From: a plasmid
DNA length: 64,000 nt
Sequence record: CP063550.1
Reading direction: 5' to 3' (one strand)
Shown: positions 6,001 to 12,000 of the stretch, one piece after another
Numbering within the stretch: the first letter of the stretch is position 1
How the letters are laid out: each line of letters begins with the position of its first letter
Position numbers: made by a program

Positions 6001-9000
6001 TGCAAAAAGATCAACTGAAGGTTGGACCCCAGACGTCATTATTGGCCGTGCAGAGCGAACCTTCTCTTGTTCAGTAAGTACCCTCTATCGCCGGTTTAAG
6101 ACGGGAGAATTCAATGTTTTACATTTACCGATGCAAGGAAAACGAAAACCAAATGGTTATAAGGAAAAACGTGGAAAACAGGCATTCAAAAGAAATATTT
6201 CTGAACGTAAAAAAGATTATGTCGTTTTCGAAGAAGAATTTGGACATTTAGAGGGTGATACGATTGTCGGCATCCACCATAAAAGTGCCGTCATCACACT
6301 CGTTGAGCGACTTTCAAAAGCCATTATCGCCTTGAAACCAGAAGGCCGTAAGGTAGTTGATATTGAAAATTCGATTAATGAATGGCTTCAATCCGTACCC
6401 AAAAATCTTTTCAAATCAATTACCTTTGATTGTGGAAAAGAATTCTCTAGTTGGAAAAGTATTAGTAATACGAATGATATTGATATTTATTTCTCAGACC
6501 CAGGAACGCCTTCCCAACGGGGATTAAATGAACATTCAAACGGACTCCTCCGAAAAGATGGACTACCAAAAGAAATGGACTTCAACCAAGTCAATCAAGG
6601 ATTCATCTCATCCGTTGCGTCCAAAAGAAACCATATCCCTAGAAAATCACTAAATTACCAAACACCATTAGAAGTTTTTTTGAGTTACGTAAATGGAAAG
6701 TTTTGTCTCGCTTAATTTGACAAATAATAAGATCTAAAAAGTTTTCATAAAAAAAGACCACGAGCAACTTAATTAGCTCGTAGTCTTTGCGCAATTTTTT
6801 TAAATCAATCAGGCAAATAATTTAAAGAAGCCATCTTTGTAGTAAAAAAAGAAGCCAAAGATTTTTAAGTTTCTGACCCTTTTGAGTTCTAATTATTTCT
6901 TCCAGAACGAAGAATGTTATCTGCTTTATCTGCAATTGATTCTGTTAGAAGGACTGAAAAATTTATGCCAGCCCTTTTGCCTAGCTTATCCGCCCATTGA
7001 GGAATTGTTAAGGTTTTTTTGACAAGTTCTGTGTCTTTCAAATATTTGGCAACATCTACACGAATTAAAGTAGTAAAAGAATCATCTTCAACAGAAATCT
7101 TATTGATTGGTGTTGGTTCTGGAAGTAGATCTTCATGCTCAATATAATCTGCTAAAACCATACCTAACACCTCTTGTGCCATAGCAATTCCATAAGATAT
7201 ATCGTCTTCGTTAATTCCTGTGTAAGCACCTTGAACATCAGGAAATTCAATAAAGTACCCACCACCTTCTTCTGGGCTAAAAATAGCAGGATAGGTTTTT
7301 GCTAAAGGCTCACTTAACATTTCAGTCAATCCTTTCTTTAATCGAATGCGAGATTATTTCAATCCCGCATCCTTTAAAATTTTTCGCTCAAGTCCTCGGC
7401 CAAGATCTTGATTGGCATGAACAGGAACAGTGATTCTAACACCATCCTTATAAAGATGATGATGAAATCCCTCTTGCCTTCGCTCAACCCAGCCATTTTT
7501 TTCAATAACTTAAGCATTTCTTTTCCCGTAAGTGGCATTGTGCACTATACCTCCTTACAAAATAATTATAACACGTATTAACACGTGCGCAAAGTGCGAT
7601 CACTTTTTGAGTGCTGGTATGTCAAATCCTGCTTTTTCTTGCGCAATCAATAAATCTAACGCAATACACATAATCCTGGATTCACTTTTGCCGTACTTCT
7701 GCTTTGGTTACTGCAATTCTTTTTGTCTCTTTTCATCCAACGTCACGGGTAACCGTTTATTTCCTATTGCAATTGGCATTGGTACTCTCTCCTTTCATCG
7801 AAATAATCCTATGAAAAATATGGCTGCAATCATCTTGAATAGTAGACTTACGAGGGCTAATACAAATCGCCAAAAGATCAAACAAAACATTAGTATTACC
7901 AAAAATACTGCGAGGTTTAAATGTACAGCTGCACTAAGTCGCATAAGTATTTCTCCAACAAATAGGACTAATAATAAGGGAATAATTTTGTTCATATAAA
8001 TCTCCTTCTTTCTCTTAGGTTTTCGGGCTTTGCTCGCTTATTTCGCACCACCTAAGCGGCGGGGGCGGTTGGAGCGATTGGTGCGAAATAAGAACCATTC
8101 CCTTAATTTCAAGGTTTTTTGTTTTTATTTCACACATTCTCACTTTTCGGTATAAATGGTTATTGACCTTTTTTCCTTTCAAATCGTTGATATGGCATTC
8201 GTTTACGGTCAAGTTCATTTTGGATTTCTTCTGTATCGTCGTAAGTGTAGGTATCTAAAAAATCAGTTAAAGTCGTGTACCAGTCGTCGCCTGGGTTATC
8301 TACTTCTTCTACATATTCCCTCAAAAATACTTCGGGTACAGCGAGTTCATAATCCATTCCCATTAACACGATAGATTCCGTCCCACACGTCAAAAATTTA
8401 GTAAATACAAGGTAATAATCGTCTACCGTCGCATCTTTGCTGTTTAGCTCTTCCATTAATTCCATGCTCTCAAAAATTGAATAATATTCTGATTCTGAGT
8501 AATAGTGTTTCCTGCAAATCGTGTAGCTGACAAAGTTTTCGACCAGTTCACTCCTTTCTAGGTAAACATTCATGATATATTTTTCTGTTTCTAGTCGTAG
8601 AAGCTCCGCTCCTTTTTTTAATGTGTCAGGACGACGTTTATACACGTCTAAATAATTATTGCTGACTGTAACCTTCGTTTGACTCGTTTCACTTTCCAAA
8701 TACAATTGTTCTTCGACTCTTTGAATAAAGTACTTCATTTCTTCCATACAACTAAAGTCTTTTTGAATCCGTCTGATTACTTCATTCAAATGTTCTTTGT
8801 TTGTTAAAAAGTGTGACACATCTTCCGTTGTTAGTTGATAAATCACCTTATTCATTTTCGTTGTCCTCCTTTTTCATGATGTAACATGCGCCATACTTGT
8901 TGACATTTTCTAAGTAGTCCAACCATTCACTTGAAACAGTCTTGGCTTTTTTCGTTTCGACAAATTTCCCATACGTTAGTTCTAAAGCTTGGTATTCAGA

Positions 9001-12000
9001 AGGTTTGATAGTGTTTGGCTTGACGCCTGCTTCCAAGCATAGTAAGGCTTGGAAAAACCATTGTCCATTTTGCTTTTTCAGTTCTTCAAGCGTTCGATAG
9101 TAGGTCGCAATGAGATTCATTTCGACACCCGATTCAATCATTTCTTCCACAGCTACCGACAATCTTTCCTTATAATGTTTTTTTGGAACACGTGTCTCAT
9201 TGTATAGGAATGTCATATCCTCCATTTTTTGTGCCATTTTATCCAAAGGTAATTTGACAAATTCGTCATAGTAATTTTGAGCCATATTTTTTTCTCCTTT
9301 TTAGTTCTCTAATTTGGTTAACCAATATTCGTTTTCATAAGTTTCCATGTTTTCTTGATAATGCAGTTCATATCCTGCAATCTTCACTAGGTCTTCAAAT
9401 AGCATAGTCGGTGCATCCTCTACTAAAGGGGTTTCTATCGTCCAGTACCGCGGAATAAGTAAAGCTTCTGCTACTTTTTCAGAAATGACTTCTTTGTCCA
9501 CCAAAATTTGAACGACTTCTTTTACAGTCAATAATTTGTGTTGTGTTTTCATCAGCGTTTCTTTCCTTTCTCATCAATCAAAATATAATCGCCATAAGAC
9601 AAGGTATATTTTTTCCCGCATGTTGGACATTGATACAAACAATAGCTTTTGATACATTTCGCTCTTTCTCCACAATCGCATTCGACAGTATATGGTGCAT
9701 GATAGTTTGGGAATAATTCGCTGAAGGGAACACCCCAATAATCAAATTTCTTTCGCATGATTGATTCTGCCTCCTCTTAGGAAAGGTTTTACTTCCTTTC
9801 GTTAGTTCTTTCTTTATTGATTTGTTGGCCAGAATGAATCAACTAAAAGCGACAAGGACAAGGGCGTGCAGCGTGCCATTTACCCTTGTCCTTGTCGCTT
9901 TTTGGTGATAAAAGGCAACTTGTTGCCGGTCTGGCAAATCAATAAAGAGATAGCGAACAGGAACGAACCTTTTGGTGAGAGGAAGTTTTTTCTATTTTGT
10001 CTTGCTTTGCAAGACCCCTTATCTTAGTGAACGTGCAACGTTCACTTCCTTTCTTCTCGAACGGCGGTGGCGGTTGGAGTGAGAGAGAGGTTTTTCAATT
10101 GAGAAGGCGCTTGCGCCTTCCTAAAAAGGCCTTTTCATTTTTCTTGTTTCTATGTAAAACAAAAAGAGCTGCAATCCTCATTTAGGACTGCAGCTCTTCT
10201 TTTATTTATATGCCCATTAATCTCGTAAAATGATCAGGGTTTCTAATTTGCATTGATTCAATGACTAGTTGATTTCGTTTATTGAAGTGACCTGTCACTG
10301 AAATAGTATACTTGCCTTCTTCCAAAATCAGCAATTTATCCGCTATTTCTATATTGGCCACTACACAATTGATTGGTTCATGACTCGTGCGTAATGTAAA
10401 TCGCACAAGCAATGGCTGTGTCTTGATCACCCTAATTTATCGAGTAAACCAATATATTGTTCCATCACGATCACCTCGCTAAAATTATAGCAAAAACAGC
10501 TAAAATTGAGAATTTTTATTCGATTTTAGATATGCTATAATAGTCAAGACAGTAAAGTTTGAAGACGGTGGCGACTTCTGGAAAGGTGGTGGTGCTTATG
10601 AATGTAAGTGCTAAAATCTATGAAAGGAGTAAGCCTTTTGTCCGCATATGAGACAATTCAAACCATTCTTGGTTTTGGTATGTTTACCATTGCTTTGATT
10701 AGTTTGATTGTAAATATGCTTAAAAATGACAAAAAGAAATAACCGTCTACTTTAGCAGGTCAGCGGTTATTTCCAAATAACTAATATTCTGCCACCGTTC
10801 TTTAATCGGTGCTGTTAATGAGGGGTTGTTAGCGCAACTCCTCTTTTTCATGTTCATTATAGCAATATTTCGCAAGAAGTTCAACGATTTCCCGTTAACT
10901 CTACATATAAAGCGGTAGAATAGCCGTAAGTATAACAGCTGTCGCTGCTACTGTGACTTTAGTCAATCGCCAAAAGGAATTATCCTTTCCTGCTCTTTTT
11001 AAAAGATAAGAACAGACAAGATACACGAATACAAGAAATAGTGATCCTTTCGCAATTCTATTTACCAAAGGATTTTCAGTGACGCCCAAAGAAATCCCGT
11101 CTATAAATGCAATTACGGGTATCAATAGATCCATCGTCAGACTAATTTTTTTTGCCATGCTTACTCCTTCTTTCTCAAACTAAAACGGTAGATCATCATC
11201 GCTAATATCGATTGATTGTCCACCAAATGGATTCTGTGAAGCGTTCAATCCATTGTTGTTAGGCGTCGCTGTATTCCGTTGTTCAAAGGTGGCGGTGCTT
11301 GGACTGGTGGACGATTGATCAGCGTGCGCACGGCTCTCTGTCGCTGCTTTACTTTCTAATAGTTGAAAGTTATCTGCTACAACTTCAGTCACATATACAC
11401 GTTGTCCTTGCTGGTTGTCGTAAGTCCGCGTTTGAATCCGCCCAACTACACCAATCAAGCTACCTTTTTTAGCTAATGTCGCCATTGTTTCTGCTGGTTT
11501 GCGCCAAATCACGCAGTTAATAAAATCGGCTTCTCAATTGCCGTTTTGATTCGTGAAATTTCGGTTGACGGCTAGGGTAAAAGTCGCTACTGCAGTACCA
11601 CTTGCGGTATAACGTAAATCAGGATCTTTGGTTAAGCGTCCTACTAATGTCACATTATTAATCATCTTTATCTCTCCATTTCTCTATTCATCTGTTGGTG
11701 TCTTTGATAAGCTAGTTTTCGCTCTTTTTCTTCGACGTGAATCACTTTTTCCATCAAATTACTAATCGAATCCATTGTCTCATCGTACGTGATCGACGCA
11801 GCATAAGGATTGCTTTTTTGATATTTCTTCCAGGTATCTTTTAGCTCGTGACTATTTTTCAGTACATCCATATCCTTTTCATAGTATATCTTTAACGGAT
11901 CAGTTTTTCCTCGACGTGTAAATGTATTTCTCACACTATCTTTCAAGGTCTTCTCATCGATCTTCTCCATTTTAGGAATAGTATAGAGATCATAAAAATC

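Follow-up and report, generated by a model that had tools for sequence, protein, structure and literature searches.

The sequence record CP063550.1 is a plasmid, of which a stretch of 64,000 nt (the window; all coordinates refer to it) was analysed. It contains an operon of four small genes situated between two copies of a GC-rich 17-mer. The coding strand of the operon is the minus strand. The right-hand 17-mer lies in a structured non-coding leader ahead of the operon, and the left-hand one lies in a hairpin loop ahead of a short open reading frame (ORF). The subject of this analysis is the nature of the two 17-mers and of the leader. Judged from its sequence, the right-hand leader belongs, in reduced form, to a family of repeated leader elements in enterococcal plasmids, and the membership of its 3' module is significant with both a covariance model (CM) and a hidden Markov model (HMM). 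The features of the locus are listed in Table 1.

Table 1. Features in and around the four-gene operon of the window
Feature	Coordinates	Strand	Remarks
HicB/HicA	6889-7538	-	neighbour
66-aa ORF	7795-7995	-	strongly hydrophobic; hypothetical protein in NZ_CP027518.1
Outer imperfect inverted repeat	7957-7983 / 8097-8123	-	27-nt arms, 70% complementary
14-bp perfect stem, 28-nt loop	8037-8050 / 8079-8092	-	displays left C-box
Left 17-mer	8058-8074		plus strand reads GGCGGGGGCGGTTGGAG; coding strand CTCCAACCGCCCCCGCC
Gene 4, 231 aa	8160-8855	-	very acidic, net charge ~-19
Gene 3, 145 aa	8848-9285	-	all-helical
Gene 2, 83 aa	9301-9552	-	acidic, pI 4.6
Gene 1, 68 aa	9552-9758	-	basic; six Cys, CxC-x5-C-x4-C-x3-CxxC
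Long nested imperfect hairpin, ~215 nt	9772-9985	-	directly upstream of gene 1 ribosome-binding site (AGGAGG)
Hairpin core (3' module)	9818-9921	-	P1 TATCA/TGAT, P2 GACAAGGG/CCCTTGTC
Two small hairpins	9999-10046	-	between C-box and long hairpin
Right 17-mer (C-box)	10063-10079		plus strand reads GGCGGTGGCGGTTGGAG; coding strand CTCCAACCGCCACCGCC
GC hairpin	10108-10126		between terminator and C-box
Bidirectional intrinsic terminator	10161-10201		closes upstream 74-aa ORF, opens leader
74-aa ORF, unannotated, GTG start	10206-10430	-	phrog_15227, function unknown, E = 1e-16
txpA-like toxin mRNA / RatA	10526-10859		type I toxin-antitoxin (Rfam)
ssb	11180-11665	-	two ORFs here (43 aa + 110 aa)
AbiEi/AbiEii	11668-13242	-	neighbour
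Toprim primase		-	neighbour
mobP2 relaxase	24657-26249	-	neighbour

The four genes of 68, 83, 145 and 231 amino acids (aa) described in the original prediction are confirmed; all of them are on the minus strand and are preceded by a good ribosome-binding site (RBS). The translational coupling claimed for the whole operon is supported at the junctions of the 68- and 83-aa genes, which overlap by 1 nt (TGATG), and of the 145- and 231-aa genes, which overlap by 8 nt (ATGAATAA), but not between the 83- and 145-aa genes, which are 15 nt apart and of which the latter has its own RBS.

The two 17-mers also are as first described, that is, on the same strand, about 2 kb apart, identical at 16/17 positions and GC-rich (76-82% G+C, against 36.7% in the window), with the left copy in the loop of a perfect 14-bp inverted repeat. 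They are the sole exact matches to the pattern in the 64 kb. When up to three mismatches are allowed (≤ 3), there are three matches against 0.10 expected, and none of the shuffled sequences (0/100) reaches three. The block common to the two copies extends to 21 nt at 90% identity. In its coding-strand form, CTCCAACCGCCNCCGCC, the motif is called here the C-box; its core on the plus strand is GGCGGnGGCGG. Relative to the right C-box, the terminator lies about 120 nt upstream and the operon ATG about 300 nt downstream; 63 nt separate the left C-box from the ATG of the 66-aa ORF that follows it. A coding origin of the 17-mer was considered and rejected: the copies lie in different frames of the plus strand, and the right copy lies in no minus-strand ORF.

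On the coding strand the right-hand leader (~9759-10205) reads, in order, terminator, GC hairpin, C-box, two small hairpins, the ~215-nt hairpin and RBS. No other nested hairpin of this kind occurs in the window. Between the end of the long hairpin and the ATG region of gene 1 there are 14 nt. The intergenic stretch of 382 nt folds as DNA far better than shuffled sequences, with z = -8.8 on the coding strand and z = -10.6 on the template strand, and the G+C content of the leader is 43% as compared with 37% for the window. A consensus scan of the minus strand from the terminator (10161-10201) to the ATG (9758) yielded no sigma-70-like site, which is only suggestive of a leader without a promoter. 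As a separate observation, the apical loop of the long hairpin (9865-9882) is exactly inverted in the E. durans locus (L011, ~5400-5440) with the stems unchanged. Short loop inversions between perfect inverted repeats seem to recur in these leaders.

Loci that encode distant homologues of the 145-aa protein were found to contain strongly folding segments of about 200 nt every 1-2 kb. In other MobP2 plasmids of enterococci, a C-rich element of 450-560 nt with multiple hairpins is found before small operons. It is present in five copies (~500-560 nt) in Enterococcaceae bacterium OF42 (L013), three in E. rivorum (L014), four in E. faecalis pEK4S (L022), and two to three each in E. gallinarum pEG001, pM190262 and the plasmid of Enterococcus sp. 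LX10 (L023-L025). Most copies end approximately 10-50 nt from a gene start, and a few lie 70-260 nt upstream. The full copies have 44-54% G+C as against 34-42% for their loci, and their coding strand is C-rich (GC skew approximately -0.2). An HMM of these copies, used with nhmmer, matches the window at 9774-9953 on the minus strand (E = 1.2e-12), and the match covers HMM positions 332-537, that is, the 3' ~200 nt of the element. The covariance model R1, which represents the 3' module and was built without any window-type sequence, matches at 9818-9921 on the same strand with 49.6 bits (E = 8e-11), the single significant match in the 64 kb.

The fold of the element is supported by covariation. 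Over the full element, 39/82 predicted pairs are changed on both sides. In the alignment of 25 copies of the 3' module, 94.2% of the cells are paired as compared with 30-36% in slid controls, and 24/35 pairs are changed on both sides. Two mismatched P1 pairs of the window are restored in plasmid Aus0004 p1 (L003) through two-sided changes, as read from the alignment. Searches with Rfam of the window region and of a multi-copy locus gave nothing at the 17-mers or the hairpins, and with no match there the element family is new to Rfam. A BLAST search of plasmids with the element gave no similarity beyond enterococci. The finding of two places per record in the plasmid BLAST most likely represents palindromes matching themselves, as in the self-BLAST of the window. 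BLAST detected no paralogue of the region within the window, while the relatives carry 2-5 copies.

The right copy of the 17-mer is kept 17/17 in the window, in Aus0004 p1, in loci L005, L010-L012, L084 and L140, and in L106. Conservation within clonal E. faecium plasmids says little about constraint. A scan of metagenomes for the 17-mer returned at least 120 matches with a median G+C of 63%, most of them chance matches in GC-rich contigs, and the relevant contigs among them are L084, L140 and L106 only.

L106 is a diverged contig of enterococcal type, in which the order of the leader is ssb, terminator, 17-mer, small hairpin, R1 module and genes. When the leaders of the window and of L106 are compared, a 25-nt invariant island, T.ACTCCAACCGCCACCGCCGTTCG, spans the 17-mer and its flank, and the rest of the 5' half has diverged. 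The small hairpin at 10026-10046 keeps its loop (GTTGCAC) in L106, and its stem changes in a compensating way. L106 contains one 17-mer only, in this leader, and its second R1 module has none. Since both this second module and the full-length enterococcal elements lack the 17-mer, the C-box is a separable module. The suggestion in the original prediction that the two copies are shared regulatory sites agrees with the invariant island and with the position of each copy, on the coding strand, 5' of a transcription unit.

It may be asked whether the pair is a functionless relic, that is, a duplicated GC-rich stretch in a clonal backbone in which only the hairpin module is functional. The region is carried by more than 500 sequenced Enterococcus plasmids (16-kb fragments, ~56-kb pRUM-like plasmids and megaplasmids), most of them 90-100% identical, so that conservation among them carries little weight. 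Likewise, the left copy tolerates a 9-bp deletion of the loop (CACCAACCGCCCCCGCC) in L005, L010 and L011, and the 17-mer alone finds the chance matches mentioned above. Against these points stand the 25-nt island in L106 within a leader otherwise unalignable in its 5' half, the occurrence of two copies in a window of 37% G+C where 0.1 is expected, and a related box at the equivalent place in a Bacillus element described below. A relic is accordingly considered very unlikely.

The original prediction also considered that the 17-mers could be recombination or att-like ends of a small mobile cassette. Two same-strand copies about 2 kb apart do flank the genes, the region is mosaic between plasmids, and repeated leader elements could be substrates for homologous shuffling of operons, as has been proposed for pLS20. 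However, the changes seen among the relatives are gene-sized and internal. Aus0004 p1 lacks exactly window positions 9300-9563, that is, the 83-aa gene. K6D_p1, E. lactis and E. durans (L005, L010, L011) lack 8203-8824, that is, the 231-aa gene, and E4402 plasmid 3 (L004) carries IS1216 at window position 8830. Whichever 17-mer sites fall within the sequence of these variant plasmids are retained in all cases. None of the loci examined shows an empty site with its flanks joined at one 17-mer. No integrase or recombinase is linked to the interval, L106 has a single copy inside its leader, and operon homologues without flanking repeats do exist in the case of the 145-aa gene, which occurs in other plasmids without any 17-mer. 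Because single genes inside the interval vary while the 17-mer sites stay, the cassette explanation is rejected, and as an account of the locus it is scarcely credible.

The left unit has a different architecture. The 14-bp stem that displays the left C-box is not followed by a U-tract and is therefore not a canonical terminator. In the predicted RNA fold (z = -3.1) the outer repeat base-pairs the first codons of the 66-aa ORF with sequence upstream of this stem, and places the RBS and start codon of the ORF inside the outer stem. This predicted fold calls to mind the translationally locked mRNAs of type I toxins. A short-word BLAST of the left region and of the 5' half of the right leader against all other loci gave nothing convincing.

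For the interpretation of the leader, the establishment gene regulatory sequence type 1 (EGeRS1) of Bacillus plasmid pLS20 and its relatives is of particular relevance (Val-Calvo et al. 2021, PMC8708921). EGeRS1 is 400-750 bp long, has 51% G+C as against 38%, contains many inverted repeats, and occurs in five copies, each before a small establishment operon. It has no constitutive promoter and blocks read-through in its native orientation only (EGeRS1-B) (PMC8708921). The five copies were located in the pLS20 sequence. A 13-mer, GGGTCCCCCTRCG, is found once in each of 13 full-length enterococcal copies, is missing from the copies of L014 and L024, and is also found in three of the pLS20 EGeRS1 copies. 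In every instance it is on the coding strand, and the 27 loci contain no further occurrence. The base of the 3' hairpin, AAAAGCnACAAGGG...CCCTTGTnnGCTTTT, is alike by eye in the enterococcal element and EGeRS1. In addition, a 14-nt box, CAAACGCCCCCACC, which is identical to the left 17-mer at 12/14 positions, is present on the coding strand of three pLS20 copies, about 100 nt upstream of the 3' hairpin.

The joint explanation proposed here is that the 17-mers represent a conserved C-rich box in the cis-acting leaders of two successive transcription units, and that the leader acts as a gate. This proposal, which we hold to be an even call, is put forward because both copies are 5' of a gene start, no promoter is apparent, the fold is exceptional, and the leader belongs to the element family with its covariation. 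Further points in its favour are the composition and the short motifs shared with EGeRS1, the invariant island in L106, and the establishment-like cargo of element-headed operons elsewhere. The terminator and the structured, pyrimidine-rich body of the leader would stop read-through from upstream. With no ordinary sigma-A promoter, the small, mostly acidic proteins would be silent in the established plasmid and would be made only in a short burst after entry into a new cell. Whatever opens or closes the gate may recognise the invariant single-stranded boxes, including the 17-mer. Within this idea, the form given most weight, at somewhat less than even odds, is an RNA-level attenuator, with Rho or a trans-acting factor on the C-rich leader. 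A little less weight is given to a site for transcription or priming (promoter or primer site) that arises when the template strand folds as single-stranded DNA, and the remainder goes to other mechanisms.

Several observations weigh against this proposal. The left copy has no leader element around it. The window leader lacks the 5' two-thirds of the full-length element and retains a single 3' module, the full-length enterococcal elements contain no 17-mer within three mismatches, and the 13-mer GGGTCCCCCTRCG is absent from the window-type loci (L001-L005, L010-L012). Neither the enterococcal HMM (nhmmer, E ≤ 10) nor the CM matches the pLS20 EGeRS1 copies, so that the link consists of short motifs, and the C-box pattern for pLS20 was designed after the match had been seen and deserves modest weight. 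According to its authors, the transferred strand of pLS20 is the non-template strand (PMC8708921). The operon is co-directional with mobP2 in the window, whereas in pEK4S, pEG001, pM190262 and LX10 the element-headed operons are convergent on mobP2-primase-ssb; therefore, no single logic of the transferred strand fits all. Finally, a role of the four proteins in establishment or anti-defence would be read from their context alone.

The two strands of the element differ in ways that bear on the level at which the signal acts. In the covarying helices, read on the coding strand, G.T/G.U pairs occupy 2/773 cells outside one fixed T.G, and A.C mismatches occupy 14 cells (~11 events). The template strand folds more stably in 25/25 copies. 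This asymmetry speaks for the template strand as the one that folds, as in Frpo, the single-stranded promoter type discussed below, but could equally be a by-product of selection for a C-rich, G-poor coding strand, the appearance to be expected of an RNA leader that loads Rho or binds a protein.

In a purely RNA-level explanation the C-box would be a single-stranded signal in the leader (an anti-Shine-Dalgarno sequence, a rut-like Rho-loading tract or an antisense target), and in the left unit a toxin-like hydrophobic peptide would be kept untranslated by the long 5' hairpin. The coding strand is C-rich and G-poor in its unpaired stretches, EGeRS1-B acts in one orientation only, the left C-box is displayed in a loop, and the outer stem encloses the RBS and start codon. 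Hairpins with similarly C-rich loops, CTCCCACCTCCTCCACC and CTCCTACCCCCACCTCC, also stand ahead of arrays of small genes in an unrelated plasmid of the RepA_N type (L006/L007). On the other hand, the near absence of G.U from the covarying helices is not what a structured RNA usually shows, the template strand is the more stable one in every copy (which may be compositional), neither the leader nor the left unit has a match in Rfam, and the differential RNA sequencing (dRNA-seq) atlas of Aus0004 lists no small RNA (sRNA) in this interval of plasmid p1, the left unit included. On balance this explanation seems unlikely.

Alternatively, the elements may be single-strand DNA signals of the transferred strand, either Frpo-like promoters or single-strand origins that speed the conversion to duplex, the latter meaning priming sites for the plasmid toprim primase or for RNA polymerase. 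The long imperfect hairpin directly upstream of the genes with no duplex promoter found, the greater stability of the template strand, and the helix mismatches, mainly A.C on the coding strand and thus G.T on the template (~11 events versus 2), would be expected of such signals, and ssb and primase are encoded next door. If, as in pLS20 and classical systems, transfer involves the strand antisense to the relaxase gene, this strand would in the window be the template strand of the operon. However, the stem has no -35/-10 pair at 16-18 bp, the strand asymmetry may be compositional, the convergent enterococcal plasmids share the layout of pLS20 in which the transferred strand is the non-template one, and a priming site needs no position flush with an RBS. 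Nor can the nic site and transfer polarity be read from the oriT-like sequence (AGGATAG repeats here, a GCGCCCT motif in pM190262). Taken together, a signal of this kind is judged quite unlikely.

The oriT-like region lies upstream of the mobP2 operon at window positions 26989-27260 on the minus strand. It has six AGGATAG repeats with a spacing of about 11 bp (~27030-27095) beside an 18-bp inverted repeat (27009-27047), a layout similar to that of oriT2 of pAD1. A further motif there, CCTTATGCTCTTT, recurs ahead of the pM190262 mobP2 operon, with its relative strand reversed.

As had been stated, the four proteins are without recognisable domains: no significant family was found for any of them in Pfam, PHROG or NCBIfam. 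The same searches of three neighbouring ORFs matched the 74-aa ORF alone, the last ORF ahead of the terminator that opens the leader. From its cysteines the 68-aa protein is plausibly Zn-binding, and a relative with 37% identity is encoded elsewhere on pEK4S. The 145-aa family has 74 relatives in Lactobacillales and Erysipelothrix. The 231-aa family is almost confined to enterococci and has 22 relatives, all unnamed, among 1.8 billion representatives (exhaustive HMMER search). A sequence search of PDB with the 231- and 145-aa proteins gave no matches. Of the remote-homology comparison that had been proposed, Foldseek was run for the AlphaFold2 model of the 145-aa protein only (predicted local distance difference test, pLDDT, 79) and gave no match to PDB below E = 1, while the model of the 231-aa protein (pLDDT 44) was too poor to search.

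In L013, L022, L023 and L025, an element copy has a gene of the 145-aa family as the first one downstream. Other element-headed operons encode an orphan N6-DNA methylase or MazEF, and the cargo of such operons elsewhere looks like establishment genes. The RepA_N plasmid L006/L007 also encodes a 145-aa homologue, and one of its C-rich hairpin loops is flipped between the two near-identical metagenomic plasmids (L006 9544-9560 versus L007 9543-9559). Strongly folding segments of about 200 nt every 1-2 kb are also observed in L016, L018, L020 and L021, which carry 145-aa homologues and come from Weissella, Lacticaseibacillus and Erysipelothrix. They are undetected by the enterococcal HMM and CM, and may be further, sequence-unrelated families of such leaders. 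In the metagenomic contig L008, a branched hairpin of about 240 nt (6810-7051; DNA fold z = -10.2) is directly upstream of an operon encoding a 145-aa homologue, followed by two RadC genes.

The neighbours are those named in the original prediction, with HicAB to the left, a type I toxin to the right and Abi genes nearby. All named neighbours are on the minus strand except the toxin mRNA. Their description as a defence/addiction island is too loose, as the block of mobP2 relaxase, toprim primase, AbiE, ssb and small genes is an establishment-type region of a MobP2 conjugative plasmid; in relatives the block also includes topoisomerase III. Over the stretch tested, the window is 100% identical to NZ_CP027518.1, an E. 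faecium megaplasmid with a MOBP relaxase and MPF_T. The similarity of the relatives compared (Aus0004 p1, K6D_p1, E. lactis, E. durans and E4402 plasmid 3) to the window starts at 7591, which means that the hicAB side is a different context; its place in pRUM-like plasmids is taken by Axe-Txe. The toxin mRNA corresponds to Rfam rli28 (complete, 105.7 bits) and its antitoxin RNA to RatA (51.5 bits). This module is missing from Aus0004 p1, for which an SpF66-like sRNA pair has been described between ssb and the next gene by dRNA-seq (PMC7724050). The ssb gene, split here, is intact (486 nt) in Aus0004 p1 and K6D_p1, and for this reason the window ssb is probably a pseudogene.

A broader proposition is that the enterococcal elements and EGeRS1 form one widespread class of structured, strand-asymmetric switches that time establishment and anti-defence operons in Gram-positive conjugative plasmids, acting via the folded single-stranded template strand or via a trans-acting factor that reads the invariant boxes. 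Although doubtful at this stage, it would, if true, make the four orphan proteins new establishment or anti-defence factors of the megaplasmids of vancomycin-resistant enterococci and of pRUM-like plasmids. The region resides on pRUM-like plasmids and on large E. faecium megaplasmids with resistance genes. The orphan proteins, and the 145-aa family next to the element in several plasmids, are candidates for such roles.

Among the known systems, Reg576/EGeRS2 of p576 (PMC6294495) resembles the present case in that a short repeated box (TTATCCCnnTTATCCC) stands upstream of successive establishment operons. The recurrence of that box matches that of GGCGGnGGCGG on the plus strand here and is consistent with a shared operator. 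The p576 operons, however, have strong sigma-A promoters and a ribbon-helix-helix repressor, whereas the box of the window is inside a structure that forms in single strands.

Single-strand origins (ssoA, ssoU and ssoT, and sso1 of ICEBs1, PMC4595007) are likewise strand-specific, folded, non-coding segments of 150-300 nt in Gram-positive mobile elements that pass through a single-stranded stage. In contrast, the enterococcal element is repeated before each operon, mostly flush with the RBS, and the terminal loop CS-6 (TAGCGT/A) is absent from the window leader. A TAGCGA is observed at 9951-9956, inside the stem of the long hairpin and not in a terminal loop. It is identical to the CS-6 consensus of ssoA-type origins, probably by coincidence.

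Frpo/ssi of F and ColIb-P9 are, like the window leader, imperfect hairpins (200-330 nt) upstream of genes of unknown or anti-defence function in the neighbourhood of ssb, with expression presumed to be limited to the period after entry. The scan of the window stem, however, gave no -35/-10 pair at the canonical spacing of 16-18 bp, the conserved motifs TTGTCN and TAnGAT are, as read from the alignment, only 11-13 nt apart, the host is Gram-positive, and the transferred strand of pLS20 is the wrong one for Frpo.

The closest resemblance is with EGeRS1. The window leader does not reach the identity of > 60% to pLS20 EGeRS1 by which the authors of the latter recognise it. It is a single shortened copy of about 400 nt (one R1 match in 64 kb) accompanied by an isolated box. 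The host genus and the relaxase family are also not those of pLS20 (enterococcal MobP2 plasmids as against a Bacillus plasmid), and the window operon is co-directional with the relaxase gene, whereas the pLS20 establishment operons run opposite to the conjugation operon. It does share the position of EGeRS1 directly before the RBS of an operon in an ssb-containing gene cluster, here with ssb, AbiE, primase and relaxase as neighbours, as well as the raised G+C content and the stable fold (43% versus 37%; z of -8.8 and -10.6). At the level of the families, EGeRS1 and the enterococcal element are alike in lying directly upstream of the RBS of small operons near ssb, in being repeated per plasmid (in the enterococcal relatives) with mostly unknown genes downstream, in having a G+C content above the plasmid mean, inverted repeats and a very stable single-strand fold, and in having a C-rich coding strand with no recognisable sigma-A promoter. 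The enterococcal family is thus a counterpart of EGeRS1 and, to judge by the shared motifs, probably a relative of it. EGeRS1 is the one described candidate for the switching of the first genes in Gram-positive conjugative plasmids, and is known only in Bacillus. What is added here is a probable relative in enterococci with the support of covariation, together with two short boxes that are invariant, the 17-mer and GGGTCCCCCTRCG, and a version minimised by nature, consisting of the box and one hairpin, before a four-gene operon. As far as its sequence and predicted fold indicate, the window leader is this minimised version of an EGeRS1-like kind of element so far known only in Bacillus, and it would offer a compact system for mutational and reporter work.

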